From positions 1 through 64,000 of the IMG/VR virus record IMGVR_UViG_3300042691_023995: a stretch of 64,000 bases of DNA. One strand, 5' to 3'. This document shows, one piece after another, positions 32,317-52,001 of this stretch. The first letter of the stretch is position 1. Every line of letters starts with the position of its first letter. The DNA is from a virus (lineage: Duplodnaviria > Heunggongvirae > Uroviricota > Caudoviricetes > Crassvirales). The position numbers were made by a program, and so were the translations under genes. The notes beneath the pieces are model-generated. The model ran no database searches. It saw only the letters and a list, made by a program, of their open reading frames with translations, and was not told the origin of the DNA.

Positions 32317-32380
32317 CTAATTCAGTTAGAGAGAATTACCAAAATCTGTTAGTGCTCTTGGAAATTATAATTCTTTCTAT

Positions 32381-32388
32381 TACATTTG
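32381..32388 (+). promoter_or_regulatory. -7 box tacatttg (TAnnTTTG) upstream of the giant-protein operon
   Basis: Perfect TAnnTTTG about 14 nt before ATG 32403, preceded by a hairpin tctctaac-taattca-gttagaga at the upstream stop. Confidence 0.4.
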
Positions 32389-32402: not shown

Positions 32403-35066
32403 ATGGCCTCTTATACAGACATAATACCCCAGTTTAACCCCTATATCCAGCAGCTTCCTGTGGAGGCTATGGTGCAGGTGGGTATGGAGAAACAGAAGCG
32501 CTATGATGAGGGGGTCCAAAAGATTCAGTCTCAGATAGATAGTGTAGCTGGCTTGGACATATACCATCCTTCAGATAGAATGTATTTGCAGTCTAAACTG
32601 AATGAACTTGGTAACAATCTTAGAACTGTGGCCGCTGGTGATTTCTCCAACTATCAGCTTGTCAACTCTGTAGGAGGTATGACTACCCAGATTGTTAAAG
32701 ACAAAAATGTACAGAATGCTGTACGTTCTACACAACAGATTAGGAAGCAACAAACTTTGATGGACCAGGCTAGGGAGAAAGGTACCCTCCATAGAAACAA
32801 TGAGATTTTCTTCAACGACCAGGTGATCTCCTATCTGAATAACAATAAAGTGGGACAGGTATTTGGTGAGAACTATCAACCGTACACTGACTACCAGAAA
32901 AAGTGGTTGGAAGTCCAAAAGAGTCTTGGTATAAAGGAAACACAAACAGATCTTCCATTTGTAATGCAAGATGGTAAGATAGTCATTGACCCAAAGACCA
33001 AGAAGCCTATGGTCAATGATTACATGGTAAGGGAAACCTTCAAAGGTGTTGATGCTCAAAGACTTAAGGAAGCCATCATGGCAGCTATGGATGATAATGA
33101 CTATGCACAGATGAAGATTGATGCATATGTTAGCTACAAGGGATACACACCTGATATGCTTATTAAGGAAGCTGATAGCACTTATAGGTCTAACAAAGAG
33201 GAGTTGACAAAGACTATAGACAATCTAACCATCCTGAAAACTCAGAATGTTGGAAATCAACAGATGACCAAGGATATAGATGTTCAACTTGAACAATATA
33301 AAAAACAGCTGAAGAATACAGAAGATCAGTATAGAGATGTAATAGCAGGAATTCAGGCAAATCCTGAGGGATACAAACAGAAGCTATTTGCAATGAATTC
33401 TATAAACAACTTTGCTAATAGTTTCTCAAACATATCCCATATTCAAAATATTGTAGATAGTCCCATCAAAAAACAAATGAATGAGGACAGAGCCTACAAC
33501 TTCAAGGTGGTTGAGTTTAACACAAAGAATGCTCAGTGGCAGAAAGAGTTTGGTTTAAAAGTAGCTACAGAATCTAGACTTGCAAATAAAGAAGCATTTG
33601 ACCAAGCACTAGCCTTATATAAAGAAGGATTGGGTCCTAATCCTCTTGGTCCAACTACAGCTAAATATGTTGGAGCTCCTCCTACAGATAAAGAGATATT
33701 GGATGGAATGGTAGAAAGCTTTAAACAAGGAGCTGACATAGACCAACTGAATAATGACAAGAATGCATTAAAGGTGAATTGGGCAAAGAACCAGCCTTCT
33801 AAAGCAGACTATGCAAAACAGAAAGGAATAGATCTTAAAAACTATACAGACGCACAATATAGAGCTGATTTAGATAAACAATTCAACAGTGACTTAGCTG
33901 CATATAATTCAAACAAGAACTCTGTAGATGCTCCTACAAGAAAAATCCTTGGTCAGTATTCTGAGCTGGATAGATTGTATAAGCTTAAGGTTAATGCAAT
34001 AAATGATGCAACTGAAAAAGCAAACGCACTTCATCCTGAAGTGACTGAAGAGGCAAATAAGCTATCTAACAATAAGGTGAGCTTTTTGGATTATACATTT
34101 AAAGATGGAAAACCTGGAGTGTATAACATACTAACAAAAAGTGCAAGAGAGATATACGAAGATATTCAATCTGGAAAAGCCACATTAAGAGTGGACAAAG
34201 CTCCTGGAGGATATATTGTACTTAGATATCCTGGTTCAAATATTACATATGAAATATCTAAGAAAGGTGGATTCTTTGGTTCTGACAAGGTGGGAGGAAA
34301 ACAAACAAGAGAATTGCTTTTGTCTGTTCATGATACATACAACAGAGTAGGACAGTCTATTAAAAATAGAGATGCAGACTTTGCAAAAATACTTGGTGAA
34401 ACTATCAACTCTGTAGCTCCAGTATCATCATTGCTTCCAAAGGGAGCAACAAGCACTCTTCTACCTTTGATAGAGGATAAACTAGGAAGAGAGCAAAAAG
34501 GACAGACAGAGGAACTAGCTGGCTTTGTAAAAGGTAAGGATTTTAACTTTGACACTGTAAAAGAACTAGCTCTAAATCCTGACACTAAGGTGACTCATAC
34601 TACCTGGGGAGATAATGTATTCATTACAATGACTGGAATGCTAGGTAAAAATCTTGCAACTCAGAAGTTTAAGATTTCAAAGTCTGACTTTGCTACAATG
34701 TATCCAAATCTTGTTGACAATACAAATATGGATTTCTGGCAATCAGCAGCAGCAAATGGTAGCACCAACTACAAATATCACGTTGCTAAGAGCGCTTTGA
34801 TGAATCCAGATGATGCTTTCACTTCTGGCACTTACGATATTCCATCTAAGAAATACATAGTGAAGGGTGATATCTTCTTTGATCAAACTGACAAAAACAA
34901 CACCACCCCTGTTGTTTATGTAAAAAGTAAAAAGACAGGAAAGGTTGTTCCTATTCCTGGCGAGGTGTTTTCTACTTTTTCAGGTTCTGAAAAATCAATG
35001 TATCAAGTGAATGATCTGTTGATAGAGAACTACTTTAAAAATAATAATCTAGATGCCGATTTTTAA
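32403..35066 (+). CDS. large Lys/Gln/Asn-rich internal virion protein (887 aa)
   Basis: Complete ORF; its stop overlaps the start of the 3978-aa gene. Confidence 0.5.
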   Translation: MASYTDIIPQFNPYIQQLPVEAMVQVGMEKQKRYDEGVQKIQSQIDSVAGLDIYHPSDRMYLQSKLNELGNNLRTVAAGDFSNYQLVNSVGGMTTQIVKDKNVQNAVRSTQQIRKQQTLMDQAREKGTLHRNNEIFFNDQVISYLNNNKVGQVFGENYQPYTDYQKKWLEVQKSLGIKETQTDLPFVMQDGKIVIDPKTKKPMVNDYMVRETFKGVDAQRLKEAIMAAMDDNDYAQMKIDAYVSYKGYTPDMLIKEADSTYRSNKEELTKTIDNLTILKTQNVGNQQMTKDIDVQLEQYKKQLKNTEDQYRDVIAGIQANPEGYKQKLFAMNSINNFANSFSNISHIQNIVDSPIKKQMNEDRAYNFKVVEFNTKNAQWQKEFGLKVATESRLANKEAFDQALALYKEGLGPNPLGPTTAKYVGAPPTDKEILDGMVESFKQGADIDQLNNDKNALKVNWAKNQPSKADYAKQKGIDLKNYTDAQYRADLDKQFNSDLAAYNSNKNSVDAPTRKILGQYSELDRLYKLKVNAINDATEKANALHPEVTEEANKLSNNKVSFLDYTFKDGKPGVYNILTKSAREIYEDIQSGKATLRVDKAPGGYIVLRYPGSNITYEISKKGGFFGSDKVGGKQTRELLLSVHDTYNRVGQSIKNRDADFAKILGETINSVAPVSSLLPKGATSTLLPLIEDKLGREQKGQTEELAGFVKGKDFNFDTVKELALNPDTKVTHTTWGDNVFITMTGMLGKNLATQKFKISKSDFATMYPNLVDNTNMDFWQSAAANGSTNYKYHVAKSALMNPDDAFTSGTYDIPSKKYIVKGDIFFDQTDKNNTTPVVYVKSKKTGKVVPIPGEVFSTFSGSEKSMYQVNDLLIENYFKNNNLDADF

Positions 35067-38000
35067 TAAAGATTTACCAGCTTTTGATAAGCCACTTGAA
35101 GGATTTCCCAAAGAGCAAGAAGTCTATAAGGGAAAGGTGTTGCCTGACACCCTGCATCCTGCTGTCCCAAATCTAGATTCAGACTTTGGACAGGTGGGTA
35201 CTGGAGATGTTCAAGACCTATTCAGAATGAACTCTGTCCAATCAGGACCTATATTCGGATCTACAATAAGTGAGCTTTCTAGAAACAAGAGGTATGATTA
35301 TTATAAGCCAGGAACAAACTATGAAGATTTATATGCAAGAGTACAACCCTGGTACAAGCAGATTGGTAACGGTCTTGTAAAAGGGGGTGCCTTTATGGTG
35401 GGCACCTTTGCACAATCATTCAATAGTATTCCAGAAACAATAAACGCTGTAGCAAAAAAAGATTTATCTGAGCTTGCTGGAAAAGACTCTTATGTTAGTC
35501 CTATAGATGATTGGTATAGAAATCTAGAAGATCTCTATCCCAACTACTATTCAGACTATGAGAAAGCACATCCTTTTAAAAGCATCCTAGGTAGTGGCTT
35601 TGCTAACACCTTTGGAGACAAGTTTGTTAAGAACCTTGGATTCATGGGTGGTGCTATTGCTGGTGCTGTAGTGCAGGATTTTGCCATAGGTGCTCTTACA
35701 CAAGGACTTGGTGAAATTCCTTTGCTATCTAACCAGATAGGAAAAGCAGCTCTTTACATGAATAAAATCCTATCCTCAGAAAGCAGGGTGGGAAGAGCAT
35801 TGGGTGCTAGTGAAAAGGGTATACTTACATCGTTTCTAGATAGCGGTGTGCAAGCTGGTAGAACAGCTGAGCAGCTCAATAGAATGGAAACATTGGCTCA
35901 ATTGGCTGCTTCTAGAAAGATTAACAATCAGTTTAGATATGGACTTAATCTGTGGACATCTGCTCTCACTGAGGCAGGAATTGAGTCAAGAGATGGATAC
36001 AGAACATTGAAGACTGATCTGATTGATCAATACAAGCTTGACAACTATGGATTAGAACCCACTGGAAAAGACCTGAAAGATATTGAGGATATTGCTACAT
36101 CTGCTATGAATGCTAGGGAAATAGGAAACCTTGGCATCCTCCTTGTATCAAACGCTATACAGTTTGAAAACATATTAAGACCTTTCTCTTCAGCAAGAGT
36201 AGGTGTAACCTCTCCTATATTCCAGGAAATTGCTGGTAAGCGCATTGCTCTTCAAGATGGACTAATGGGTGGCTATTCAGAAATAGTGCCTAAGTCTACA
36301 TTTGGAAAGATAGTTAGAGACATCAAACCATATGCACCTGAACTGTTTACAGAAGGTGTGTTTGAAGAGGGTGGACAGTTTGCAATAGAAAGAGGTACGT
36401 ACGACTATTACAATAAGAAGTATTTTGATCAGAAAAATAACAAATCAAGAAACGACTTAGCTGAATTCATTGATTCTATAGGAACTGGACTAGTTGACCA
36501 ATTCAGAACAACAGCTGGTTGGGAGAACATGTTCCTAGGAGCTTTGACAGCAGGACTCACTGGTAAAGCAAAGAGTGTATATAGTAACATAAAAGGTACA
36601 GGATCAAAAGCTCAGATAGCTGCTGAGATTAACAATCTCAACTCTAGCCAGCTCATGGGTGTATTTGAGAACAACTTTGAAAATGCTGCTCAACAGCTTA
36701 AGGCTTCTAAAGACATGGAAGCTGCTGTTAAGAAGAGAGATATATTTGAATACAAGAATGCTCAGTTTAGAGCTTTGTTCTCTTGGGCAAATGCCAGAAT
36801 GCAGGGCAACAGATATGGTCTTCTAGAGGAAGAAATTAAACTTGCCAAAGAACTTCCTAATGAGCAATTCAAACAAATGTTTGGATTTGATGCTACGGCA
36901 GACAACAGACAGGTTGTAAATGCATACCTGTCATTGGTTCAAGAGGAAGCTAATAAGATTAAGAGAAACTACGACAAGATCAATGAGTTCTTTGTAAACC
37001 CTTACAAGTATATTAGAACTCCTAAGACTGATGAGGAAATAACTGAAAGCGAGAACTACAGGAAGTATGAGAACTATAAGACAGCAATGACTTATTTCCC
37101 ATCCTTGATTGATCATGCTGACAGAAGAACCGATGAGATACAGAAAGAACTGATTGACATCAATCCTCTATTGTCTGTAGATATAGTTAAGAAACTTGGT
37201 AGTGTTGACTCGCTATTAGACTTGGCTAAAGAATATGAGAAAGAGGCTACAACATCTCTTGGTCTAATTAGTGACATCACCACTCCTGAGGAAAGAAAGA
37301 AACTGGAGAGAAGAGCTAAGACACTTAGAAACCTAGCAGAAAAAATATATGGTGTTACAGACACCTACTATTTAGTAGCAAAAGATGAGATGTCTAAAGA
37401 TGTTCTTTCTAGGAAGGAAAATCTACCAGGCGACTATCTTAAGCTATTTGACAACCTAGTAAACTTTGAGATTAACGGAAGAGACCCTCTAAGAACTGAT
37501 AAGAACATCAAACATCCTCTGGATGTAGAAAAGGCTATCTCTCTAGCTGTAGATCTTAACAGACTGGCTGAGATGAAGAAAGATGCAGGAGATGCATTTG
37601 ATATTCTATCTAATCCTGAGAAAGGGTTTGACGAGTTTAACAAGGTGGATGAGAACAGACTTCCTCCTAAACATTCTCCTGAGTCAGAACTCACTCCTGG
37701 TAGAGAGTATGAAACTTCAAATCTTGGTAAGTATAGAACCAGGAAGATTGCTGATGGAAGATACCAAGTGATTAGTCCAGACAAGACTATTGTATCTACA
37801 CATCCTTCAAAAGAAGAAGCATCTGCCACTACTAAGTATTTGAATGAAAATCTAAGCAGCCTACTTAAGGTGACTGTGGTTAGAGATAATGGAGATGGCA
37901 CTATCAGAATCACTGACTCTAATGGTGACATTCAAGATATTCCTAAAGCAGATATATTAAAATACACTCCTCTTGAAACCCAAGAGGAAAAGATAGCTAA

Positions 38001-41000
38001 GCAGAAAGAGCAAATAGCTAATGAGCAGAAAGACCTAGAGGCAGATTCTGGAAACGTAAACACAGGAAACCCTGCAGAACCTTACGGTAAAGAAAGTGCT
38101 CTTCCTGATATAAAGATATTGTTCAGCTCAAGCACTACAGAATCTGAAGGTAGTGATGATCCTAACTGGCAGAAGAATGCTGCTCTGTCTCCTATTCACA
38201 TTAAGAATTCTAGAGAGTTTTTAAACAAGGCACAGGGTTTTGCTAATAGAGCAAACCTAAGAGCCATCCTTATCACTCCTCTATTGGAGAAAGCATATGG
38301 ATTAGAGGGACTCACTCAAATCTCCTATGGTGTCAGAAATGAGGACCTAGCAACACAAGAACAAAAAGACAAGTTCTTAAAAGACACTACAGATTTAAAC
38401 AATGGATTCATTGCCCAAGTGTTTGTAGAACAAGTAGGTAGTGATCTATACTTTATTGATAAAACTGGAAACAAACTTGGTAAGTTTGGAGAGCAATTAG
38501 ATGAAACCAAACTTGGTAATGTTGTTTTCCAGACAATGCGTAGAGCTGCTCTTAAAGATAGTCAGGGTGGTACAAAAGCAAGAAGTGGACAGGAGGAAGA
38601 AGCTAAAGTATATCTAGAAGCTTGGAAAAAAGAAAGAGCAAACATATTTGCTACAGATCCTAACGCCTCTCCTACAGTTTATGAGTTCAACATATCTAGA
38701 GGTATACCTATAGATGGTGATACTCCTAATCATGTAGCAGGCACACTGATTACATCTGATCCTAAGGAAGAAAGACAAGTTCTTAAGGGTCAATCAATTA
38801 TACAGATTCCAACAACCAAGACTATCACATTCAAAGGAAGAGCTATAAACTTCCCTAATGGCAGACCAGTTCTTGTATATGGTGACAATGTTGCCTTCTT
38901 GAACAATGTGAAGTTGGATGGCAAGAGAGCTCAGGTGATATATGCTGTTATTGAGAAGATGGCTAATGACATCACTCAGAGAGCTAATGCTGGAAAGAAG
39001 ATTGTATTCAGTAAGACAAAAGAAGCCAAGTTCCTGCAGAACATTCTCTATTGGAGAACAGGAGATACAAAAGAGGGTTCTAATCAGATAAACATTTCTG
39101 AGGATGGAACCACAATATCTTTTGCTGGTAAGTCATTCCCTATTGCTAAACTGGCTGAGAATAAGAAGGAATTAATTGAGGCCATCAGTAACTCCTACCA
39201 CAATACAAACAACAAGAGCTTGTCTGAGGAAATGTTCAGCAAGTCCTTTACAGAGTTCTACATTGAGAAGGGAGAACTCAAGTCTCGTGATTGGGCTAAC
39301 TACCAGTCCTACTTGTTGTCCTCTACATTCCCAGATGGATCTAAGAGAGCTGCAGCTGACACCCCTCTTACAACTAAAATAGCTATTCCTCTTTCTGAGA
39401 TTCCTTATACACATAAGCAGAAATACTCAACTCTTATAGGACTTGAGCTTCCTATTGGTGTAATAAACAAACCTGCTGCAGAAGCTAAAGAAACTGTTGT
39501 AGAAGCTCCTAAAGGTAAGTTTGATTACAACGGAACAAAAGAGAACACCACTCCTATTCTGAGCTTTGGTAATGTATCCTTCACTGTTAAGGAAGGAGAA
39601 GATCCTCAGTTCTTGGTAGACAGCGAGGAGTTTAAGAAGACACAAGATAACCTTGTTAAGAAACTAAGACAAAACTCCCCAGAGGCAGATGAGGAATCAT
39701 TGGTTAAACAAGCCAATGGTGTCATCCTCAGTGTTGTTAGAAAGGAAGTGGATAATGATCTAAAGACTGCTACAGTTGAGGAAGTTGTTCCCACTGCTGA
39801 GGAAGTAAAACCTACTGAGGAAGTAAAACCTGTTGAAGAGAAAAAAGAAGAAGAACCTAAGAAGACACAGTTTGATCCTAAGAAGACAAAGAAGAGAGGA
39901 AACCTATTCAGAGCTGTAAGTGAGACTGATGAGTCTGAGAGAATGACTGAGGCTGATATTGAAGCCTTTAAGAAATGGCATGCTGAGAAGGTACCTCAAA
40001 TCCCTTATGAGATTCTTGGACAGATGGTAACCATCAATCCTAATAGAAAGGCATGGGGTGTGTTTGAAAATGGTGTGGCTAAGTTTGTACGTGGTGGATT
40101 GAGAGCTACAGAATACCATGAGATATTTCATGGCATATGGAGAGGATTGCTAAACGCTGATGAAAGAGCTGCTATTGTAAAAGAGTTTAATGCTAAAGAG
40201 GGTAGCTTCAAAGACAGGCTTAGTGGTAAGACTATCAACTTTGCTGATGCTACAGAAGAGCAAGTGGAAGATAGACTAGCTGATGACTTCAGTGATTACA
40301 GAAAAGGTAAGCTTGCTGCTAGAACTTTAGGAGATGCTATCCGTGAGTTCTTCAAAAGAATCATGGATTTCTTCAAGTCCTTTGTAGCCAAACCTACATT
40401 AAAGGACCAACTGTTTGATAATATTGAGCAAGGTAGATTCAAAGATAGAGAGCTTGCACCTGAGGTTAAGAACCTAGGCCCAGCTTACAGAGCTGCAGAA
40501 GGTCTTAACGAACAGCAGACTAACGAGTTTGTTCAGGATATGACAGCCCTATCTTCTGCCATGATCTTTGGAAATGGAAAGATAGGTGCAATTGATAAGT
40601 CAGCCATCTATGATATTAGAAAGATAACCAGCAAGCAAGTGTTTGATGAGATTAAAAACATCTACACTGAGCAGGGCTGGATGGATCAACTTAGTGAAAA
40701 CACCTGGAATGATCTGGTTGAAAAGACTAAGCGCTCCCTAAAAGCCAACCTTAAGGTTTCCTTTAATGAGGAAGACTTGGTGAACATCAACGATGAGCAA
40801 AGTAATAACAGAGACTATGCTCCAGAACCATTCTCTACAGACTATAAGAAGTCTGCTCCTGTTGGAATAAAGTTCACATCTTCTACTATTCCTAAGACCA
40901 AAGCAATGAGTCAGGAGGGTAGAACATCTCTCACTCTTCCTGATCTAAAAGATACTAATAATCTTTATTCACTGGTTCCTTATGGACAAGTGTTCTCCAC

Positions 41001-44000: not shown

Positions 44001-46989
44001 GAGATATTGTGAGGTGATGATTCCTCACTGGTTCAGAGATTTGGGCAAGCTGTCTAAGAAGACAGATGCTGAAATCCTGCAATATCTGAACACTCCTGAA
44101 GGAAGAAAGATACTAACAGGTGTTGGTTTCCGTATTCCTACACAGGCGCTAAGCTCTGCAGAAGTGTTTGTTGTGAAGGGCTTCCTTCCTAAGGCTATGG
44201 GTAAGACGGTGGTTGTTCCATCAGCCATCACTACAAAAGCTGGATCTGACTTTGATATAGATAAACTCAACATGTATCTGAAAGCCACCTATATTGATAG
44301 GAATGGTAATCTCAAACTTGTCACTCTTGAGGGTGATGAGGCAAGTACAAGAGCTTTCTATACAAAGGTGTTCAATGATTCATTAGCTGGAAAACAAATG
44401 TACAAGACTGAGCTGTTGGAAGCTGCACAGATCTTATCATACAACCTTGATGATCCTAAGAATCTTGTAGAGAAATATGCTAATACATTAAACATTGTTC
44501 TTGAAGGAGTTACTGACTCATCTGACTATGAGCAGGCTATAATAGATGATATTAATGAGCTTGGAGATGAAAACATTCAGAAGGGTCTGAGAGAGAAGTT
44601 TGTAGATGAGATGTATACAAAAGCTCTTGAAAATGAATACTATGAGAGCCTAGAAGAACTGCTTACACTCCCTGAGAACTTCAGCAGATTGGTGAATCCT
44701 GTAACTGATGGTGGTCTGAAGAAGCTAGCTGGAAAGATAGATGCATTGAAAGGATATGATGAAGCAGCTGTTAAGAACAAGCTTCTTAATAGAAACTTCC
44801 TGAGCAATCTAAGGAATGCATTCATCACTGGTAAGAAGTGGGTGGGTATTGTGGCTACAAACATCACAGGACACTCTCTTGCACAGAAGTCTAAGATTAT
44901 AATTGATCCAGTTAGATTTGAAAATGTTAAGAATAGAGACGAGAGAAACATTCTTAAATACAATGGTGGACAGATCCTCCTTGATCATAACACTATAGAA
45001 GTGGATGGTAAGACATATGCTTCTATCTCAGGAATCTATGATGCTAAGAATGAAGGATACATCTCTGATGGTTTATCTGGATATGCTACAGCTGTTGTGG
45101 ACGTTGCTAAAGACCCATACATCTTGAGAATCATTAAGAGCGATCTTTTGATAAGCACATTCATGTTCCTCAGAAGAGTAGGTGTTCCTAATGAGCAGCT
45201 GGCAATGTTCATGAACCAGCCAATCATAGATGAGTATATTAAGCTCTTAGATAAGAAGAAGTCAAAAACTCTATTTGATTCAAGATATATAAATGAGATA
45301 CAGGAGTTTTTCCCTCATCTTAAACAAGACATAACTAATACGTTTGATAAGGATGGTCTTGAAGAAAACATCAAAACCTACTACAGTGAAAAACAGTTGA
45401 GTCCACGTAAGAACGGTGAGCAGATAGCTATTCTTAAAGAGTTCTTGAAATATGCTAAGATGGCTGACTTCAGCTTCAATCTTACACAGGCTTCCAACTA
45501 TGACACTACTAAATTCAGAAATGCAGAGAACCTCTCTAACAAACAATACAAGCAGGAATTCGCAGAGAATTATAACATATTCTCTTCTGTGGATGATCTT
45601 TTAAGAAATACACACATTGGAGAGCAAGCCATGTACCTCAACAAGAGTGTAGATGCTGCTGCTGAATACCTTGTTCTTGATAAGCCTGAGTTCATGGAGA
45701 TCACAGATGAGCTTATGGAGCCTTATTACAGAGATCAATACTTAGGTAATGAAGATCGTAATAAGGTGGGTAATAAGATGAAATCTGCTCTTCTTGACTT
45801 CATCATCCAGACAAGAACAGATGTTGCTGCTAATCTATACAGAGACTTGGTAGAAACTTCCACCTCTGTAGCAAACATGCTCACTGAGGCTAAGAAGCAA
45901 TTCCCTAACGTAAAGATTATCAATGACTTAGAGGTGGATAGCTCAGGTAGAATTGGAGGTGCACAAACCATCAAACTGAGAGTGAATGATAGATCTAAGG
46001 ATAGTGAAGACATGTACACAGGAATGATGAGAGAGCTTAGAGATGATCCTCGTACAAACGCTCTGTATAATGGAATAGTGAAACTATCCATCCTACAGGG
46101 TACACAGATGTCTCCTATCTCCATCAAGAACATCATACCTGTAGAAGACTATGCTGCTAAGATAACTCCCATTATTGCTGGTCTGAAGGCTGATGAGTCA
46201 ATTAAAGCCTTTGCAAAAAGTTATGAGTTCCAAAGGAATGAGTTTGCTGATGATAAGGTGGTACCAATTGTAAATCCTAGATTTAGAGAGGTAGAGCAGG
46301 TTGAATATAACGAAGATGCTCCTAGAAGATTCCAGGCTGCCTTTGTAAAGATTAACACAGTGAAGGGTCCTATCGTGGTTCCTGGTCAATTCCCAACCAT
46401 CCAAGGTTTGGGTGTTAAAACCATGCAAAGACAGCTGTTGTTCTTGAATGAGAAGTATGATGCTAAGGGTAGCAACTATGATGTGGTGAAGGTTCCTAGA
46501 GCGCTTCCTATCAACAAGAAGAAGCTAGATGAGGGTAAGTTTGATATAGCCACTGGCTTAGAAATCACTAACCAAACTTACGCTGAGAAGATAAAGAATG
46601 GTGACACATCTCTTCAGAACTACTATGGCTATCAGAAGGTGAAGAATGTAGATGGTTCTCCTGTAATTGCTGGACGTGATAGAGACGGAAATGCAATTTA
46701 TGTCTATAAATTTATTAACTTGCATGGGGATGGTAACTACACCACTGAGTATTATGGAGATGGAAGACCTTCCGTTTTCAACAATGGAACTCAGAAGAAC
46801 ATCATAAATGTAAACGGATCAAAGGTGAGTGGTGAGATTTCAGATGCTGCAATAGTTGACTACTTCATGGAGAATGCATATTCAGACATCATGAAACTGC
46901 AAGCTGCAGATCCTGTAGTTAATAAACAAATTGAACCAGAGGGACTTCCTCCAATTGATGACGAGAATCAAAATAGTTGCAAATCATGA
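35053..46989 (+). CDS. giant 3978-aa virion protein; candidate ejected multidomain protein with an RNA-polymerase-like GSDFDID motif and an HExxH motif
   Basis: Complete ORF. N-terminal Gly-zipper hydrophobic segments. HEIFHGIW at about 40118-40132. KAGSDFDIDKLNMY at about 44240-44262, resembling the DxDGD metal site of two-barrel/QDE-1-like polymerases. Confidence 0.55.
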   Translation: MPIFNKDLPAFDKPLEGFPKEQEVYKGKVLPDTLHPAVPNLDSDFGQVGTGDVQDLFRMNSVQSGPIFGSTISELSRNKRYDYYKPGTNYEDLYARVQPWYKQIGNGLVKGGAFMVGTFAQSFNSIPETINAVAKKDLSELAGKDSYVSPIDDWYRNLEDLYPNYYSDYEKAHPFKSILGSGFANTFGDKFVKNLGFMGGAIAGAVVQDFAIGALTQGLGEIPLLSNQIGKAALYMNKILSSESRVGRALGASEKGILTSFLDSGVQAGRTAEQLNRMETLAQLAASRKINNQFRYGLNLWTSALTEAGIESRDGYRTLKTDLIDQYKLDNYGLEPTGKDLKDIEDIATSAMNAREIGNLGILLVSNAIQFENILRPFSSARVGVTSPIFQEIAGKRIALQDGLMGGYSEIVPKSTFGKIVRDIKPYAPELFTEGVFEEGGQFAIERGTYDYYNKKYFDQKNNKSRNDLAEFIDSIGTGLVDQFRTTAGWENMFLGALTAGLTGKAKSVYSNIKGTGSKAQIAAEINNLNSSQLMGVFENNFENAAQQLKASKDMEAAVKKRDIFEYKNAQFRALFSWANARMQGNRYGLLEEEIKLAKELPNEQFKQMFGFDATADNRQVVNAYLSLVQEEANKIKRNYDKINEFFVNPYKYIRTPKTDEEITESENYRKYENYKTAMTYFPSLIDHADRRTDEIQKELIDINPLLSVDIVKKLGSVDSLLDLAKEYEKEATTSLGLISDITTPEERKKLERRAKTLRNLAEKIYGVTDTYYLVAKDEMSKDVLSRKENLPGDYLKLFDNLVNFEINGRDPLRTDKNIKHPLDVEKAISLAVDLNRLAEMKKDAGDAFDILSNPEKGFDEFNKVDENRLPPKHSPESELTPGREYETSNLGKYRTRKIADGRYQVISPDKTIVSTHPSKEEASATTKYLNENLSSLLKVTVVRDNGDGTIRITDSNGDIQDIPKADILKYTPLETQEEKIAKQKEQIANEQKDLEADSGNVNTGNPAEPYGKESALPDIKILFSSSTTESEGSDDPNWQKNAALSPIHIKNSREFLNKAQGFANRANLRAILITPLLEKAYGLEGLTQISYGVRNEDLATQEQKDKFLKDTTDLNNGFIAQVFVEQVGSDLYFIDKTGNKLGKFGEQLDETKLGNVVFQTMRRAALKDSQGGTKARSGQEEEAKVYLEAWKKERANIFATDPNASPTVYEFNISRGIPIDGDTPNHVAGTLITSDPKEERQVLKGQSIIQIPTTKTITFKGRAINFPNGRPVLVYGDNVAFLNNVKLDGKRAQVIYAVIEKMANDITQRANAGKKIVFSKTKEAKFLQNILYWRTGDTKEGSNQINISEDGTTISFAGKSFPIAKLAENKKELIEAISNSYHNTNNKSLSEEMFSKSFTEFYIEKGELKSRDWANYQSYLLSSTFPDGSKRAAADTPLTTKIAIPLSEIPYTHKQKYSTLIGLELPIGVINKPAAEAKETVVEAPKGKFDYNGTKENTTPILSFGNVSFTVKEGEDPQFLVDSEEFKKTQDNLVKKLRQNSPEADEESLVKQANGVILSVVRKEVDNDLKTATVEEVVPTAEEVKPTEEVKPVEEKKEEEPKKTQFDPKKTKKRGNLFRAVSETDESERMTEADIEAFKKWHAEKVPQIPYEILGQMVTINPNRKAWGVFENGVAKFVRGGLRATEYHEIFHGIWRGLLNADERAAIVKEFNAKEGSFKDRLSGKTINFADATEEQVEDRLADDFSDYRKGKLAARTLGDAIREFFKRIMDFFKSFVAKPTLKDQLFDNIEQGRFKDRELAPEVKNLGPAYRAAEGLNEQQTNEFVQDMTALSSAMIFGNGKIGAIDKSAIYDIRKITSKQVFDEIKNIYTEQGWMDQLSENTWNDLVEKTKRSLKANLKVSFNEEDLVNINDEQSNNRDYAPEPFSTDYKKSAPVGIKFTSSTIPKTKAMSQEGRTSLTLPDLKDTNNLYSLVPYGQVFSTVINALHNTSIGKIAGKLLKLSQKDSDYVRFFQRVGGDLETGTLPFGDFKYDDWRLFIELVQVYTKQKPDARIEYIQGNQVYSGSALVTGIVNTTVKGWIQNIRNLAKDPDSIIKYDSIDKSYTIEDISDVKIDSPKEQLEFLAKLGVTFSKDAYDRLSKDIKENKFPTAVSSIKNTLLKDKQIMNVQKKTLDIGGPLNTLAEFLVGATNPIQASTRTNITGNQANSFADSNAPSVFETTFNEVGSIQELFQIRPELQDVFSKGSQVLKLGGLFFDEDGKRTNLKIKLGYIEGRNNNDTSSGKSVGNLTEGEKLSLEINQNLNGQFYVLIPADSSTEWMMNLGNNVEFAEFETGEAWDKVNNIFKDYLFDDVALALDADNRKDIRNLGDRARDLRFFGEILSEKYASAIQEMIDDERSLSDIQTYINENFKDREVEDPVGNKKIVLGIESDIKAFINGSAQETIENLKNTGELSFTDEGFLKYESLDGNFASRESLKKNELSEEDVTNIIMFANTNQIISNFEYHKILFGDPYQFAIKDNQLDETKRIKSFLSPRRMTVDLVEFNSFLNDNVNNADGIKLDPKDPGYHTFKSYTKTITLNDVKVASSLANNPNLSKEVRKAFLDITEADASSILELGTYREVKIKNSQWPKEAEDWYQWQMAYTRQNMPGYEYTNPVLEEHDKALVATPEPSFVIEVLKPIVSGVKNNKNRIELVLDKFSQMPIYYKAVQGTSLEDVYLRMINPDNQIGYAIMVSGRKVGAQKLYELYKGGKLNSDAFSEEDIVEVPWKIYGIQVENSYEGPGYQTRGSQLTKISTLDLYAYGEPIGANAERKEAIRAAVNKNKDILSRYHKNKYEGFLKKAGLEDLEGVYRIVDRAALAKALQDEMFKRTLSENVVDSIQLDENNEFIIPFEASPAYVQIRNIIYSFIDKAIGSPKMSGGPYVQVPVTGWESASKGRGLAVKTKDGYKKISREEYEAMEDKKGVILTEDTLKIYEDEKGKRYCEVMIPHWFRDLGKLSKKTDAEILQYLNTPEGRKILTGVGFRIPTQALSSAEVFVVKGFLPKAMGKTVVVPSAITTKAGSDFDIDKLNMYLKATYIDRNGNLKLVTLEGDEASTRAFYTKVFNDSLAGKQMYKTELLEAAQILSYNLDDPKNLVEKYANTLNIVLEGVTDSSDYEQAIIDDINELGDENIQKGLREKFVDEMYTKALENEYYESLEELLTLPENFSRLVNPVTDGGLKKLAGKIDALKGYDEAAVKNKLLNRNFLSNLRNAFITGKKWVGIVATNITGHSLAQKSKIIIDPVRFENVKNRDERNILKYNGGQILLDHNTIEVDGKTYASISGIYDAKNEGYISDGLSGYATAVVDVAKDPYILRIIKSDLLISTFMFLRRVGVPNEQLAMFMNQPIIDEYIKLLDKKKSKTLFDSRYINEIQEFFPHLKQDITNTFDKDGLEENIKTYYSEKQLSPRKNGEQIAILKEFLKYAKMADFSFNLTQASNYDTTKFRNAENLSNKQYKQEFAENYNIFSSVDDLLRNTHIGEQAMYLNKSVDAAAEYLVLDKPEFMEITDELMEPYYRDQYLGNEDRNKVGNKMKSALLDFIIQTRTDVAANLYRDLVETSTSVANMLTEAKKQFPNVKIINDLEVDSSGRIGGAQTIKLRVNDRSKDSEDMYTGMMRELRDDPRTNALYNGIVKLSILQGTQMSPISIKNIIPVEDYAAKITPIIAGLKADESIKAFAKSYEFQRNEFADDKVVPIVNPRFREVEQVEYNEDAPRRFQAAFVKINTVKGPIVVPGQFPTIQGLGVKTMQRQLLFLNEKYDAKGSNYDVVKVPRALPINKKKLDEGKFDIATGLEITNQTYAEKIKNGDTSLQNYYGYQKVKNVDGSPVIAGRDRDGNAIYVYKFINLHGDGNYTTEYYGDGRPSVFNNGTQKNIINVNGSKVSGEISDAAIVDYFMENAYSDIMKLQAADPVVNKQIEPEGLPPIDDENQNSCKS

Positions 46990-49900
46990 GTAAATGCGCA
47001 TTAGATATAAGGAAAGATATCGTTGCTACTGTTGGTAGAAAGCTTACAGAGAAGGGAGCTATTGTGCAAGGAGATGTAGGATATTTCCCAAATCCTTCTA
47101 GGGCTGGAGCTGCTATCAATGATATTAACTCTGAGTTCAAGACTAGTATTGTAAAAGAAAGTGAGAAAGGATCGTTCCTAATTGAACCATCTGATGATCT
47201 TATTAATAGATATTTTGAACAATACAAAAGACAGGAAGAAGGTGAAGCTGGACAATTGCAAGAAGAAGAAAGACTTAGAGGTGGATATACAGAAGAACAG
47301 CGTGGTGAGTTCTTTCAGTTAGAACAAACTGAAACATCAGCAGCATCTCCTGCTACAATAGCTAAGATAAAAGACTTCCTTGAAAGAATTGGTGTGAATG
47401 TTAAGGAGTATGACAGCATAGTTGTAAATGGTGTCAAGCAAGATGCTAATGCTGCAGCCCTAATTACACAGAAGCTCATTCAGATTGTTCAGGGTAAGGA
47501 GGGTGTTGCTCTTCCTGAAGAAGCTATGCACTTTGCTTTGGAGATCATAAAGCAAACAAACCCAGCGCTTTATAACAAGCTGCTCAAAGAGATTAACAAC
47601 TATCAGTTTTATAAACAGATATTGGCTGACTATGGTGCACATCCTCTATACCAAACTGCTGATGGAAAACCTGACATCAGAAAGTTAAAAGACGAAGCTA
47701 TTGCTAAGGTGTTAGCTGAGACAGTGATTAACCAGAACGAGGGTTCTGTAGAGAATCCTGAACACCTAGCAAAGGTGGAAAGCTGGTGGTCACAGATTGT
47801 AGAATGGCTTAAAAACCTATTCAACATAAAGAGTGGATTTGATCAAGCAGCCCTTGCTGTGCTTTCTGGGGAAGAGATTGGCACTGTAGAAGATATTAGA
47901 GCAGAAGAGGGAGCAGCCTATTTACAAAAGACCAAGCAGGAAGATAGCATCGATAGATTGAAAGCTATGGATAGCAGACTATCTATCAAAGATGTTGAAG
48001 AAGAGGGTAAAAAAGAACCTAGGTATTTCTTAGATGGCGTTACAAAGATATTGAAAAGGGTGTCTGATGATGTAAAAGATTGGTACTCAAGAAGATTCTC
48101 AAACAATGAAATCACCAAAACTGAGAAAGACAAGGCAATCGATGATATAAAAAGAGACAAAGGAACTAAAGGACACAGTGATCAAGACTATTTGATAAGA
48201 GGATTGAACGATGGTAGAGGTGGTATATTGGTTGATGAGAATGGCTATCTTAGACAAGATCCTTTAGACGATAGTGGATATGTTCCTCAGATGGACCCTA
48301 ATGATCCTGAGAGAGTTATATATGAAACGCTAAAAGAGAATCTACGTGAGAGACTTGCATCCTTTGGAGAAAGTACAAGGTTTCTTTCTGAGATAAAAAT
48401 ATATGATCCAAAGACTAACAAGGCTGGTACAATTGACCTAGTTGCCATCACTAAAGATGGTAAGGTGAATATAATAGACTGGAAGTTTATGGATTTAAAC
48501 GTTGATGTATATGAGGATGTTCCTTGGTACAAGATAGCTGCTTGGAAGAATCAGATGGATCAGTATAAAACCATGCTAATCAATGCTTATGGTTTTAAAT
48601 CTCAAGACTTTGGACAAACCAGAATGATTCCTATCAGGACAGTTTATTCTGGTGGTACACTCCTAGGAATAGAAATAGGTGCTGTAGATCCAAAAGATAT
48701 CACAGATGCATACCTGATGCCTGTTGGACTAGAAGAAGAAGCAACAGGAAACGAACAGATAGATGCACTGTTGAAGAAACTGAACGCTGCCTATAGAACT
48801 CTTTCTGAGAAGAAAGCACTTCCTTCAGAGAAGAAAGAAAAGGCTGTGCAGTTGAATACCCTGATGTCAGCCATCAGACAACTTCAGATAAGACAAAACA
48901 TTGAACCGCTTTTGGAAGAAGCTAAGTTGCTTAACAACTACATCCAGAAGGTAATCAATCGATTTGAAACAGAATGGAAGGATAAAGAAAGAATAACACC
49001 AGAAGAAGAAGCACAGAGAAGTGCATTCTTAAAGGAGATAAGAGATGCTGAGAAGATGCTTGGTACATACACTAGCTTGGATGTTGACCTTTCAGACCTA
49101 TTCTTATCAGGAGGTTCTGAGAATGAGAAGCTTGAGACTGAGGTGGCTAAGACTGTTAGAGTGGCTAGAGCCTTAGGTGACAAGCTTAATAGAACTAAGA
49201 CAGCTTTCGTAAGAGATGTTGTAGGTAGAAGTGAGAAGGTTGAGGACATTATAAAGGAAGAGAAGGAGATAGGTATTGTAGCAAGATGGTTCTCAGATAC
49301 AGCCTCTTTACAGCTCAACTCTGCAAAGGTGCTATTTAGAAAATCTAACAGAGCGCTTGCAAAAGCTTCTATGGATTCTGTAGACCTGGCAAGAGAACTT
49401 CAAGAGATTGAGGGTAGATATAAGAAATGGGCCACTGCTAAAGGTCTTAATAAGAAAGACTACTTCAATATCATCAAGAAGAAGGGTAAGAATGAACTTA
49501 TCGATGAGTTTAATCCTGAGTTCTACAAAGAACTTAAGTCTAGAATAGATAGGAAAGATCCTGATCTATTTAACTGGGTTAAGGAAAACATTGATATCAA
49601 AGCTTATAACGACTTCCTTGATGAGCAAATCAAAAAGGAAACAGAAGAGATTAATCAGAAGTATAAGGACAGAATGGAGTTTGACAGAGCTACAGGAAAC
49701 TTCTATCTGTCTGAAGAACAGGAAAGAAAGAAGGAGTGGGAGCTGAACAAGATGAAGAAAGCCTATAACACTTCTTCAACAACAAGTGCTGGCTGGTTAC
49801 AATATAACTTCATCAAGAGATTTCCAAAGGTGGAGAAGTGGCAGTCTCAAGAATGGAAAGAGTTGTTTAAGAAAGATGCTGCTGGTAACTATGTGAATAA

Positions 49901-52001
49901 ACCTGCTGTGGACTTATACAACTACATCAGGAAAGTTAATGACGACTATAGATCTATTGGATATTTAGGAAGAGGAGAAGAAAGGGTGTTCTTACCATGG
50001 GTGAGAAAGAGTTTAGTGGAAACACTTATGTCTGGTGGCAGGGTGAATCTATTTGAACAGTTCCTAAAGTCTATATCTGTTGATCCAAATTCAGAAGTGG
50101 GTCTTGGTAAAATGGACCAGTACACTGGTAAACCAATTGACGAGATTCCTAAATACTTCACTACAGAGATTAAGGAGGACGTGAGTGAGGACTTATTCAG
50201 GAACCTGGCTCTATATAACACCATGGCTCTTAGATATAAGTATCTTTCAGAGATTGAAGAGCAGGCTTTGGGTTTGGTTGACATAGAGCAAAACAAAGGA
50301 TCAATTGCCACTTCTTGGTTCTCAAAGACCCAATACGACAAGAAAACTGGAAAGCTCATCACTGTTCCAAATAATAGCAAGAACACTGAGCTTATTGATA
50401 GCATGGTGAAGGGTATCATCTATGGACAGAAATATCTGAAGAATGATACGTTTGACCAGGCTCTTGGAAAGCTAACCAACGTTGGTGAAACGATAAACAA
50501 AAAACTTGGTGTGAAGATATTCCCAGAAGGATTAGAGGGAAGAATCATATCAATGAATAAATCTATTGATACACTGAACAAAACATTCAGTCTCCAAGCT
50601 ATGGGTCTGAACCCTCTGTCAGCCACTTCCAACTTGTTTGGTGGCACATCTCAGTCAATTATTAATAGTGGAAAATACTTTACAAAGGGAGACTATCTCG
50701 CTGCTGAAGCAAAGGTGAATGCTAAATGGCTCAACTTTATATCCACTGAGGAAAAGAAAAAGATTATCGGTGCCCTAGATTACTTCCTTCCTCTTACAGA
50801 AGACTTCTCTAGGGATATTGCTAATGAACTGTCTTTGGGTAAGTTGAGTCCTGATGGGATACAGAACTTCCTCATGAGCCTCATGAGAAACTCAGACAAG
50901 CACGTACAAACTGTTAACTTCCTTGCTTACATAGGTAACTCTATTGTAGTGGATGGACAGGTGGTAAATGCTAGGGAATACCTACGCACCACTCCTGAAT
51001 ACTCAGATATGTATTCTGGTACAACAGAGGAAAGACAAGAAAGAGAGAAACGCTTTGAGAAGGATGTTGAGAAGCTTGTAGAAGAAAAGGGAGTGATGAA
51101 GGTAGGACAAGTGGTTGATAATAAGTTTACTATACCTGGCGTAGATAGAAAATCTGAATCAGTGATTGAGCTCAGAAGGAAGATACAACAAGTGAGCAAG
51201 GATGCTCTTGGTAACATGACAGATGACGCTAGGAGAATGATTGACATGAACATATATGGAAATTCTTTCATGTTGTTCAAAAAATGGATTCCAAGACTGG
51301 TGGATGTTAGGTTTGGTGACCTGAAATACAACTCAGCTTCTGATGCTTATGAATGGGGTAGGATGCGTGTTGCGTTTAGCATGCTATCTCTTGACGTTAT
51401 TAAAAGCATAAAGAGGCTAAGAAACTCTCTTGTAGGTAACCAGGCTGGTGTGGATGATATGAGACAGATGTTTGAGAAGAAGAAGGAGGAATATGAGACA
51501 GAAACAGGTAAAGAGCTGGATATGACAGAAACCGAGTTTGTAGACTTGGTAAGAAGAAGTATACAGTCTCAGATGATTGATCTTATGTTCTACCTCACAC
51601 TGATAGGATTGTTCATGGCTCTGAAGGCAAATGCCCCAGATGAGGATGAGGATGAGGTGGTTAGAAACAGATATAGGTTTATCATGAGGGCTACAGACAA
51701 GCTTAAGGATGAGATTGCCTATTTCTACAATCCAGCCAACTTCTCAGCCCTTGTGGCAGGGGGTATATTCCCAGCCATCAGCCAGCTTGACAACTATGGG
51801 AAGTTCTTAAGCAACTTCATGAAGGAAATGTTTGGGGTGATTGTGGGTGACCAGGAGATGAGAGATGACGCTTTTGCTATAAAATACCTTATGAAATCCT
51901 TCCCAATTACAAATCAGCTGTCCCAATATCTCCCTGTGTTTGTTCCAGATGTAGCTAAAGACCTAGGAATTAAAATGCAGTCAAGATCAGGTATAAGGTA
52001 A
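46977..52001 (+). CDS. giant 1674-aa virion protein with a PD-(D/E)xK-like nuclease motif
   Basis: Its start overlaps the upstream stop. SEIKIYDPKTNKAGTIDLVAITKDGKVNIIDWKF (about 48400-48490) fits an E...hhD...hh(D/E)xK nuclease motif. Confidence 0.5.
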   Translation: MQIMSKCALDIRKDIVATVGRKLTEKGAIVQGDVGYFPNPSRAGAAINDINSEFKTSIVKESEKGSFLIEPSDDLINRYFEQYKRQEEGEAGQLQEEERLRGGYTEEQRGEFFQLEQTETSAASPATIAKIKDFLERIGVNVKEYDSIVVNGVKQDANAAALITQKLIQIVQGKEGVALPEEAMHFALEIIKQTNPALYNKLLKEINNYQFYKQILADYGAHPLYQTADGKPDIRKLKDEAIAKVLAETVINQNEGSVENPEHLAKVESWWSQIVEWLKNLFNIKSGFDQAALAVLSGEEIGTVEDIRAEEGAAYLQKTKQEDSIDRLKAMDSRLSIKDVEEEGKKEPRYFLDGVTKILKRVSDDVKDWYSRRFSNNEITKTEKDKAIDDIKRDKGTKGHSDQDYLIRGLNDGRGGILVDENGYLRQDPLDDSGYVPQMDPNDPERVIYETLKENLRERLASFGESTRFLSEIKIYDPKTNKAGTIDLVAITKDGKVNIIDWKFMDLNVDVYEDVPWYKIAAWKNQMDQYKTMLINAYGFKSQDFGQTRMIPIRTVYSGGTLLGIEIGAVDPKDITDAYLMPVGLEEEATGNEQIDALLKKLNAAYRTLSEKKALPSEKKEKAVQLNTLMSAIRQLQIRQNIEPLLEEAKLLNNYIQKVINRFETEWKDKERITPEEEAQRSAFLKEIRDAEKMLGTYTSLDVDLSDLFLSGGSENEKLETEVAKTVRVARALGDKLNRTKTAFVRDVVGRSEKVEDIIKEEKEIGIVARWFSDTASLQLNSAKVLFRKSNRALAKASMDSVDLARELQEIEGRYKKWATAKGLNKKDYFNIIKKKGKNELIDEFNPEFYKELKSRIDRKDPDLFNWVKENIDIKAYNDFLDEQIKKETEEINQKYKDRMEFDRATGNFYLSEEQERKKEWELNKMKKAYNTSSTTSAGWLQYNFIKRFPKVEKWQSQEWKELFKKDAAGNYVNKPAVDLYNYIRKVNDDYRSIGYLGRGEERVFLPWVRKSLVETLMSGGRVNLFEQFLKSISVDPNSEVGLGKMDQYTGKPIDEIPKYFTTEIKEDVSEDLFRNLALYNTMALRYKYLSEIEEQALGLVDIEQNKGSIATSWFSKTQYDKKTGKLITVPNNSKNTELIDSMVKGIIYGQKYLKNDTFDQALGKLTNVGETINKKLGVKIFPEGLEGRIISMNKSIDTLNKTFSLQAMGLNPLSATSNLFGGTSQSIINSGKYFTKGDYLAAEAKVNAKWLNFISTEEKKKIIGALDYFLPLTEDFSRDIANELSLGKLSPDGIQNFLMSLMRNSDKHVQTVNFLAYIGNSIVVDGQVVNAREYLRTTPEYSDMYSGTTEERQEREKRFEKDVEKLVEEKGVMKVGQVVDNKFTIPGVDRKSESVIELRRKIQQVSKDALGNMTDDARRMIDMNIYGNSFMLFKKWIPRLVDVRFGDLKYNSASDAYEWGRMRVAFSMLSLDVIKSIKRLRNSLVGNQAGVDDMRQMFEKKKEEYETETGKELDMTETEFVDLVRRSIQSQMIDLMFYLTLIGLFMALKANAPDEDEDEVVRNRYRFIMRATDKLKDEIAYFYNPANFSALVAGGIFPAISQLDNYGKFLSNFMKEMFGVIVGDQEMRDDAFAIKYLMKSFPITNQLSQYLPVFVPDVAKDLGIKMQSRSGIR

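Follow-up and report, generated by a model that had tools for sequence, protein, structure and literature searches.

Giant proteins of the transcription block carrying DxDxD are a recognised signature of crAss-like phages, and two described systems are close to the locus analyzed here. In Cellulophaga phage phi14:2, gp66 is an injected, active polymerase which transcribes the early genes; its DFDID sequence at 1361-1365 is the catalytic metal-binding motif, found in a non-catalytic conformation in the crystal (bioRxiv 10.1101/2020.03.07.982082). In ΦcrAss001, the cargo set consists of gp45 (C1), gp46 (C2), gp47, gp49 and gp50 (Bayfield et al. 2023, PMC10172136), of which gp47, gp49 and gp50 are virion components by MS/MS (PMC10172136). 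The phi14:2 counterparts are annotated in the phi14:2 record as virion proteins found by mass spectrometry. The two sets are related to each other: gp47 matches phi14:2 gp67 at E 2e-8 and gp49 matches phi14:2 gp65 at E 4e-31.

The DNA analyzed here (the window) comprises the first 64,000 nucleotides of the IMG/VR record IMGVR_UViG_3300042691_023995. Pfam searches of the window returned Crass_capsid (E 6e-26), crAss_MUZ (4e-38), CrAss_Ring_1, CrAss_Ring_2 and P22_portal, all above the cut-offs, and PHROGs identified the terminase and the portal. Judged by these matches, the window is that of a crAss-like phage with Crassvirales-type virion genes (capsid, P22-like portal, R1, R2, muzzle). Its TerL shares 25-33% identity with the TerL of the remaining crAss-like phages and of Cellulophaga phages, and 40% with that of Leptolyngbya phage Lbo-JY46. 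The phage belongs to a divergent environmental crAss-like lineage whose nearest cultured relative is Lbo-JY46, a phage for which a literature search found no paper. The lineage is large and mostly uncultured; its metagenomic relatives number in the hundreds to thousands, and its genomes measure ~110-116 kb. The order from the muzzle through smaller proteins to giant proteins is common to the window, ΦcrAss001, the uncultured crAss phage cr108_1 and phi14:2. In this region three very large genes, designated p1, p2 and p3, follow each other:

32403-35066, plus strand: p1, 887 aa, 100 kDa, ATG start, no internal stops
35053-46989, plus strand: p2, 3978 aa, 448 kDa, ATG start, no internal stops
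46977-52001, plus strand: p3 as listed, 1674 aa, TTG start, no internal stops
46986-52001, plus strand: p3 in its likelier form, 1671 aa, 191 kDa, ATG start

We consider it very probable that these genes form the crAss-like "transcription gene block", p2 containing the virion-type RNA polymerase and p3 being the gp65/gp49 equivalent. The preliminary description had seen here an operon of giant proteins, candidate ejected cargo including a virion RNA polymerase; homology, fold, motif and gene order indicate that this reading was essentially right. The three giant reading frames with overlapping stops and starts on which it was built are confirmed by the coordinates and the sequence. The p1 stop codon (TAA, 35064-66) lies 14 nt within p2, which starts at ATG 35053. 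At the next junction an in-frame p3 ATG at 46986 forms ATGA with the p2 stop (46986-46989); because of this overlap, this ATG is the likelier start of p3, and the resulting 1671 aa equal the length of a 100%-identical database protein (P0226). Frames of 1671 to 3978 codons cannot have arisen by chance in DNA of 39% G+C. Of the Lys/Asn/Gln richness attributed to the proteins, Lys (9-10%) and Asn (7-8%) are found in all three, whereas Gln reaches 6% in p1 only.

A Bacteroidota promoter had also been proposed upstream of p1. The pattern sought was of the Bacteroidota sigma-A type, i.e. a -33 TTTG and a -7 TAnnTTTG with a spacing of about 19 nt. The octamer TACATTTG (TAnnTTTG) is indeed present at 32381-32388, and no -33 TTTG occurs at 17-21 nt spacing from it. 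The full pattern is found at just two other sites in the window, which corresponds to the chance expectation. As the octamer alone occurs 71 times in the window against 58.7 +/- 7.6 expected, its single occurrence at 32381 is no promoter evidence; with the -33 element absent and the counts near chance, the promoter was rejected as unproven. Sigma-70 and terminator scans revealed nothing marking the operon ends.

The sequence of p2 is that of a fusion: after a gp47/gp67-like module come a linker, then a zincin-like module, and lastly a two-barrel RNA polymerase. Its parts are distributed as follows:

35155-37341, plus strand: N-terminal module (residues 35-763), common to ΦcrAss001 gp47 and a 1552-aa protein of Lbo-JY46
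35359-35694, plus strand: Gly-rich uncharged segments seen in the sequence, residues 103-123 (QIGNGLVKGGAFMVGTFAQSF) and 194-214 (NLGFMGGAIAGAVVQDFAIGA)
39679-40491, plus strand: region resembling the gp47 C-terminus by BLASTP (residues 1543-1813)
39778-39870, plus strand: low-complexity linker rich in Pro, Glu and Lys (residues about 1576-1606), separating the gp47-like module from the zincin/polymerase part
40117-40131, plus strand: zincin-like motif H1689-E-I-F-H1693, an HExxH aligned with gp47 and cr108_1
41896-45630, plus strand: single-chain two-barrel RNA polymerase (residues 2282-3526), homologous to phi14:2 gp66 and ΦcrAss001 gp50
44236-44277, plus strand: catalytic motif KAGSDFDIDKLNMY (residues 3062-3075), with DFDID at residues 3066-3070, nt 44248-44262

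The presence of a virion-type polymerase in the 3978-aa protein, suggested from a motif at about 44240-44262, is borne out by sequence, profile, fold and motif conservation. Residues 2372-3485 of p2 match residues 758-1761 of gp66 (PDB 6VR4) in phmmer at E 1.5e-15; the family HMM gives E 3.6e-51, and BLAST agrees. The same region shows significant fold similarity to gp66, with two domains of the double-psi-beta-barrel (DPBB) type and a connector in one polypeptide, the fold which had been anticipated around DFDID. The proposed motif is real and aligns with the active-site motif of gp66, TKTGSDFDIDKM (1361-DFDID-1365); gp66 and ΦcrAss001 gp50 are likewise single-chain two-DPBB proteins with GSDFDIDK. 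Across p1, p2 and p3, D-[hydrophobic]-D-x-D has a single occurrence, which is DFDID. Relatives were collected from a set of 5.8 billion proteins using the C-terminal 1699 aa of p2 as query. In the GSDFDIDK region, the residues G, D, F, D, D and K are unchanged in 50/50 homologues whose identity to the p2 fragment is just 31-60%; such constancy speaks for selection on activity. The active site of a two-double-psi-beta-barrel DNA-dependent RNA polymerase is predicted at D3066/D3068/D3070. Identity of p2 to characterised proteins, gp66 included, is low (about 20-25%). QDE-1/RDR-type RNA-dependent RNA polymerases, β' and RPB1 are relatives at the fold level only, their sequence similarity being undetectable. 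An N4-like (T7-fold) polymerase was also considered for p2 and rejected, the Foldseek match being not significant (E about 0.9). No DFDxD polymerase was detectable in the fetched neighbourhood of the homologous Lbo-JY46 genes, so the polymerase module does not occur throughout the wider lineage.

In Pfam and PHROGs, p2 gave nothing significant. Its N-terminal module is matched in BLASTP by gp47 (E 3.9e-20) and by the 1552-aa protein of Lbo-JY46 (E 1.4e-46), and is linked to phi14:2 gp67 since gp47 matches both. Residues G111 and G200, one in each Gly-rich segment, are invariant in a 6-sequence alignment with gp47, cr108_1 and Lbo-JY46, and the two segments are possibly membrane-active elements. 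Gly-zipper segments had been ascribed to all three proteins; p2 has two such segments at its N-terminus, whereas p1 and p3 have none. The clearest Gly-zipper segment of the region sits in a 1057-aa ORF located upstream of the three genes. Residues 1543-1813 match gp47 residues 1991-2305 (E 1.9e-6) and a 2967-aa protein of cr108_1 (E 1.3e-10), HEIFH of p2 being aligned with HEAFH and HESFH, respectively. The zincin-like part (about 1607-1815) has no Pfam or PDB match. The distance from this motif to the downstream GSDFDxD is about 1350-1380 aa in relatives, yet their motif is mostly HExxE; as the second His is replaced by Glu in most of them, a protease activity of this region of p2 appears doubtful. 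Residues about 764-1540, 1815-2280 and 3530-3978, large stretches of p2, lie outside the modules with an assigned function. C-terminal additions vary among relatives and include an AlkB-like oxygenase, NADAR and an SF1 helicase.

By BLASTP, p3 is a homologue of gp49, the RNA polymerase-associated virion protein of ΦcrAss001 which itself matches gp65 of phi14:2: the E values are 3.3e-48 for a 1714-aa protein of cr108_1 and 1.1e-7 for gp49. Its gene is located downstream of that of the catalytic subunit, and 701 metagenomic homologues were found. Two motifs are conserved, LPEEAMHF (residues 176-183) and AGTIDLVAI...IIDWKF (480-501). The HExxH reported for gp65 orthologues is absent from p3, which has an invariant EEAMH instead; the EExxH type is also present in gp49 (EEFAH) and cr108_1 (EECAH), while phi14:2 gp65 has HExxH. 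In the window phage an HExxH is found in p2, not in p3. The N-terminal 700 residues of p3 gave negative hhalign results against gp65 and gp67, with no direct gp65 similarity, and a weak match to gp47 near a PD-(D/E)xK-like motif (E 9e-4, probability 23%); this motif is in gp47 in ΦcrAss001 and in p3 in the window phage. Searches of p3 against PDB by phmmer and profile were negative, and Pfam and PHROGs gave nothing significant.

More than 2500 metagenomic homologues of p1, of about 860-890 aa, form an unannotated family in which the N-terminal ~135 aa are invariant and the C-terminus is variable. No significant match was found in Pfam, PHROGs or PDB, profile search included. Against ΦcrAss001 gp45 and gp46, p1 has no BLASTP match, and hhalign with a 41-sequence p1 profile gave probabilities of 0.1-0.2%; hhalign against phi14:2 gp68-70 and the small cr108_1 proteins was negative. 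The N-terminus has weak matches to Lbo-JY46 and to a "structural protein" of csAssE-Sib. The AF2 model (pLDDT 78, pTM 0.45) consists mostly of long helices with small β-domains, and Foldseek found no match to it in PDB (best E 0.024). A tail fibre, considered in view of the conserved N-terminus and variable C-terminus, is unsupported by such a model. The gene adjoins the gp47-like gene on its upstream side, the place of cargo protein C2 (gp46) in ΦcrAss001. This position makes p1 a candidate for a cargo or ejection protein; that role rests on position only, as no link to known cargo proteins is detectable.

The organization of the locus was then compared with that of the known systems. As in phi14:2, the polymerase is encoded in the structural genome half, with a gp67/gp47-like module on one side and a gp65/gp49-like protein on the other. 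In contrast to gp66 (2180 aa), the polymerase of the window belongs to a chain of 3978 aa, in which it is fused N-terminally to a gp47/gp67-like module and a zincin-like region. The ΦcrAss001 cargo genes have the same order after the muzzle, and gp47, gp50 and gp49 correspond to the p2 N-terminus, the p2 polymerase and p3. In ΦcrAss001, gp47 and gp50 are encoded separately, one on each strand, whereas the window has one ORF. The predicted TM helix of gp45 is resembled by the Gly-zipper segment of the upstream 1057-aa ORF, and neither this ORF nor p1 has sequence similarity to gp45/gp46. The corresponding genes of cr108_1 (NC_055878) encode proteins of 2967, 798 and 1714 aa, the last being the best database match of p3 outside its clade. 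The 2967-aa ORF likewise places HESFH and the N-terminal polymerase half in one frame with a gp47-like module, but it ends just before DFDxD and resumes about 290 nt on, while the polymerase of the window is uninterrupted.

Such a long frame could be an assembly or sequencing artefact uniting two genes, and in two related scaffolds (L005 and L011) the gene does appear as two ORFs. Both splits fall on 100-N scaffold gaps at the linker point, and a two-gene state in these strains was rejected as a product of the gaps. A further sample (L009, 99.96% nt identity) has the same ORF of 3978 aa, and contigs that were assembled independently from other samples and are 99.96-99.99% identical carry it without interruption. 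The linker is an indel hot spot: strain L007 (92-98% identical) has a 213-aa insertion there and carries the ORF as a 4191-aa version. Long relatives also keep the zincin-like motif and the catalytic motif, ~1350-1380 aa apart, in one chain. An artefact has therefore next to no chance of being the explanation; the p2 fusion is real, and related strains conserve it.

Other explanations concern the function of the proteins. That p2 and p3 are virion cargo would follow by homology from the presence of their homologues in phi14:2 and ΦcrAss001 virions; that the two-barrel polymerase of p2 is instead unpackaged and intracellular, made after infection like the nvRNAPs of phiKZ and AR9, seems very unlikely. 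The proteins could also be mainly structural, forming a trans-envelope channel or a T7 gp14-16-like core, with the polymerase region of p2 an inactive relic. The Gly-rich hydrophobic segments of the p2 N-terminus, the long helical p1 model, whose similarity to helical barrels of the TolC/OprM type is weak and not significant, and the non-catalytic DFDID of the gp66 crystal are in line with such an ejectosome. It is nevertheless highly improbable, given that G-DFD-D-K is invariant in 50 relatives 31-60% identical, that gp66 is an active polymerase, and that p1 and p3 showed no similarity to T7 gp14-16 or to any other solved protein, in sequence or fold. The parallel drawn earlier with T7 gp14-16 is retained as analogy only: these proteins and N4-type (Schitoviridae) vRNAP are functional analogues as large capsid-carried, ejected proteins. 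N4 vRNAP also transcribes early genes, but is a T7-like single-subunit enzyme whose fold differs from that of p2.

p2 is one 448-kDa chain uniting the equivalents of two genes (phi14:2 gp67 and gp66, or ΦcrAss001 gp47 and gp50). If they behave like their characterised homologues, p2 and p3 would be made late and packed in the cargo zone of the capsid, then pushed through the tail partly unfolded, either before the DNA or together with it. In the host they would refold, and the polymerase would there transcribe early phage genes. The chain may act uncleaved, or it may be processed at the linker, its own zincin-like domain being a possible agent. p1 is co-translated with p2 and p3 and stands in the position of a cargo/ejection protein, as a candidate for such a role. 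A more speculative version, which we regard as unlikely, is that the polymerase is not released but ejected and working as a single 448-kDa chain. The Gly-zipper module would exit first and insert in the host membrane, and the flexible linker would hold the polymerase and the zincin-like domain at the entry pore, so that anchored transcription helps pull the genome in; the AlkB-like oxygenase, NADAR and SF1 helicase of relatives would be injected along with it, serving as repair or anti-defence enzymes.

Earlier reports had described fusions of these three proteins in crAss-like phages, and the current picture is unchanged by this locus. The result widens the range of the crAss-type virion RNA polymerase block to an environmental lineage that is large and for the most part uncultured. 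The window offers a clean, uninterrupted case of a single frame encoding the polymerase together with the gp47/gp67-like module and the zincin-like region, and p2 is a convenient construct for questions of proteolytic processing and of the roles of the non-polymerase modules.

The window covers the structural half of the genome of a crAss-like phage. Terminase and portal (PHROGs), a capsid protein (Pfam Crass_capsid, E 6e-26), ring proteins 2 and 1 and a muzzle protein (crAss_MUZ, E 4e-38) are encoded by co-directional genes, followed by three consecutive giant ORFs on the + strand. The TerL shares 40% identity with that of Leptolyngbya phage Lbo-JY46, the closest cultured relative, and only 25-33% with those of the other listed crAss-like and Cellulophaga phages; these low values indicate a divergent environmental lineage. 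A Shine-Dalgarno-like sequence was observed before only 2 of the 23 + strand gene starts, and the upstream regions are A-rich. Such little use of Shine-Dalgarno sequences fits a Bacteroidota-type host without proving one. The giant ORFs and the small ORF that follows them are distributed as follows:

32403-35066, + strand: p1, 887 aa, 100 kDa
35053-46989, + strand: p2, 3978 aa, 448 kDa
46977-52001, + strand: third ORF as listed, TTG start, 1674 aa
52071-52466: 131-aa ORF, between p3 and a fourth giant ORF

These coordinates bear out the overlapping stops and starts of the preliminary description: p1 runs 14 nt into p2 before its stop, and within the third ORF an ATG at 46986, in frame, overlaps the p2 stop as ATGA. 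Because of this overlap, and of an identical database protein of the same length, a p3 starting at that ATG (1671 aa, 191 kDa) appears the likelier product.

p2 carries a crAss-type two-barrel RNA polymerase whose active-site motif is intact and conserved. The pattern D-hydrophobic-D-x-D occurs only once among p1, p2 and p3, at KAGSDFDIDKLNMY (p2 residues 3062-3075, nt 44236-44277). A phmmer search of p2 against all PDB sequences gave a single match, 6VR4 (E 1.5e-15, p2 2372-3485). This entry is gp66 of phage phi14:2, an RNA polymerase packaged in the virion, and p2 TKAGSDFDIDKL is aligned with gp66 TKTGSDFDIDKM; the catalytic motif of gp66 is 1361-DFDID-1365 (bioRxiv 10.1101/2020.03.07.982082). 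Identity to gp66, to gp50 of ΦcrAss001 and to the proteins annotated "putative RNA polymerase" in many gut crAss phages is about 22-25% (tblastn, BLASTP). The polymerase part has 105 metagenomic homologues, and G-DFD-D-K is invariant across the 50 of these that were aligned; an HMM of this region detects gp66 at E 3.6e-51 and gp50 at 9.6e-43. A DPBB fold around DFDID had been anticipated, and structure prediction agrees: with the AlphaFold2 model of p2 residues 2451-3550 (mean pLDDT 84.8, pTM 0.84) as query, Foldseek returned 6vr4_A first among PDB entries (E 2.6e-31, TM 0.67) and plant RDR2 next, so that the two-barrel fold around the motif is supported. Four relatives of p2 (P0001, P0006, P0014 and P0032) carry, at the C-terminus and about 870-1200 aa past GSDFDxD, differing extra enzyme domains: an AlkB-like 2OG-Fe(II) oxygenase, a NADAR domain or an SF1 RecD/TraI-like helicase. 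Such domains are absent from p2; in the relatives they may serve as co-injected enzymes of repair or anti-defence.

The polymerase is fused to a gp47-like module, is followed by a gp49-like gene with an overlapping start, and lies inside the virion gene block. Residues 35-763 of p2 match the N-terminus of ΦcrAss001 gp47 (BLASTP, E 3.9e-20) and a 1552-aa protein of Lbo-JY46 (E 1.4e-46), and residues 1543-1813 match the gp47 C-terminus, with a Y-HEIFH aligned to HEAFH in gp47 and HESFH in cr108_1. As gp47 itself matches phi14:2 gp67, p2 unites in one fused chain the equivalents of gp67/gp47 and of gp66/gp50, and the summed lengths of gp67 (1797 aa) and gp66 (2180 aa) almost exactly equal that of p2. 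The junction is a Pro/Glu/Lys-rich linker (p2 residues ~1576-1606, nt 39778-39870), which is an indel hot spot: in strain L007, 92-98% identical, a 213-aa domain is inserted at this place (L007 region 17393-17989) and the ORF reaches 4191 aa. Assembly gaps in two related scaffolds fall exactly at the linker (L005 9738-9837, L011 9753-9852), which explains why the gene looks split in them. The uninterrupted 3978-aa ORF was found again in other samples at 99.96-99.99% identity, showing that the fusion is real. In clade members long enough to show both, the zincin-like motif (HEIFH in p2) precedes the catalytic motif by about 1350-1380 aa; since it is mostly HExxE and not HExxH, any protease activity of this region is uncertain.

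p3 resembles a 1714-aa protein of cr108_1 (BLASTP, E 3.3e-48) and ΦcrAss001 gp49 (E 1.1e-7), and gp49 matches the "RNA polymerase associated protein" gp65 of phi14:2 (E 4e-31). p3 has 701 detectable relatives. In its motif LPEEAMHF (EEAMH at nt 47517-47531), E178, E179 and H182 are invariant, gp49 and cr108_1 included. A PD-(D/E)xK-like motif, AGTIDLVAI...IIDWKF (residues 480-501, nt 48423-48488), is shared with cr108_1, whereas in ΦcrAss001 it is found in gp47 and not in gp49; this placement suggests that domains have been shuffled between the three giant proteins. PDB searches matched neither p3 motif to a solved structure.

The family of p1 comprises more than 2500 metagenomic proteins of ~870 aa, all unannotated, in which the first ~135 residues are highly conserved. 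We detected no similarity to ΦcrAss001 cargo gp45/gp46 or phi14:2 gp68-70, no PDB relative by profile search, and no significant structural neighbour of its mostly helical model (pLDDT 78, pTM 0.45). The p1 N-terminus has a weak similarity to a 993-aa "structural protein" of csAssE-Sib, located downstream of the muzzle gene of that phage. We infer a cargo role for p1 from its position only.

The region preceding p1 was also considered. The proposed Bacteroidota-type promoter at 32381 reduces to the octamer TACATTTG, with no -33 TTTG at a suitable distance from it; the complete bipartite pattern occurs twice in the window against 1.8 expected, i.e. at chance level, and the octamer alone 71 times against ~59. 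An inverted repeat with a 10-bp stem, TCTCTAACTAATTCAGTTAGAGA (32310-32332), lies within the 86-nt gap before p1 and overlaps the stop of a 1057-aa ORF (29143-32316, +); it was rejected as a canonical terminator, the + strand having no T-run after it. Gly-zippers, attributed to the giant proteins, are confined in them to the p2 N-terminus, as uncharged Gly-rich segments (residues 103-123 and 194-214), and are absent from p1 and p3. The clearest one, GENAGGNIGGTIGKTAGMFFGPVGSMVGQAAGQLIG, is in the 1057-aa ORF (residues 323-358, nt 30109-30216) and resembles the predicted TM helix of the ΦcrAss001 cargo protein C1 (gp45); this ORF had no sequence match in the phage collection searched. The cargo or ejection block may start upstream of p1. 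A 287-aa ORF after the muzzle gene (27373-28236, +) matches the C-terminal end (residues 1454-1641) of the 1654-aa muzzle-like protein of Lbo-JY46, so the muzzle protein, single in that phage, seems split here over two genes (1691 + 287 aa).

Downstream of p3, a fourth giant ORF (52475-64000, +) stays open for more than 3842 codons, past the window end. Collagen-like triplet repeats, G-T-S/G-S-S, make up most of it (Pfam Collagen, E 2.6e-70), with non-repeat segments in between. This ORF accounts for the raised G+C (0.46-0.47) and for spurious ORFs seen on either strand at 52.9-55.4 kb, and is probably the fibre mentioned in the preliminary description.

The recognised signature of crAss-like phages is the presence of giant transcription-block proteins that carry DxDxD (PMC7886860), and every membership feature testable in silico was found at the locus. 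The preliminary reading, candidate ejected cargo including a virion RNA polymerase, was essentially correct. The fused arrangement is of an already reported type: for some crAss-like phages, Drobysheva et al. (bioRxiv 10.1101/2020.03.07.982082) describe a single huge polyprotein made up of all three proteins, and the published genome cr108_1 likewise joins a gp47-like module to the polymerase. In cr108_1 (L002 19506-28409, 28700-31096) the polymerase ORF ends just before the DFDxD profile position and resumes ~290 nt further on, in line with the description by Yutin et al. (2021) of RNAP genes with internal introns or disruptions. The 2748-aa protein of Lbo-JY46 (L004 24652-32898) combines an HExxH region with a C-terminus like that of gp49/gp65; it contains no DFDxD motif, and the polymerase HMM does not hit it. 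A crAss-type vRNAP may be missing from that phage or be encoded elsewhere in it.

The locus is a divergent new member of a known system. Mass spectrometry places gp65-67 in phi14:2 virions (phi14:2 record annotation) and gp47, gp49 and gp50 in those of ΦcrAss001, a phage that stores ~5 MDa of cargo in capsid and tail and for which extrusion of this cargo in a partly unfolded state has been proposed (PMC10172136); gp66 passes into the host and there transcribes the early genes (bioRxiv 10.1101/2020.03.07.982082). By analogy with these homologues, p2 and p3 would be packaged, ejected and then refolded, and the polymerase of p2 would start early transcription.
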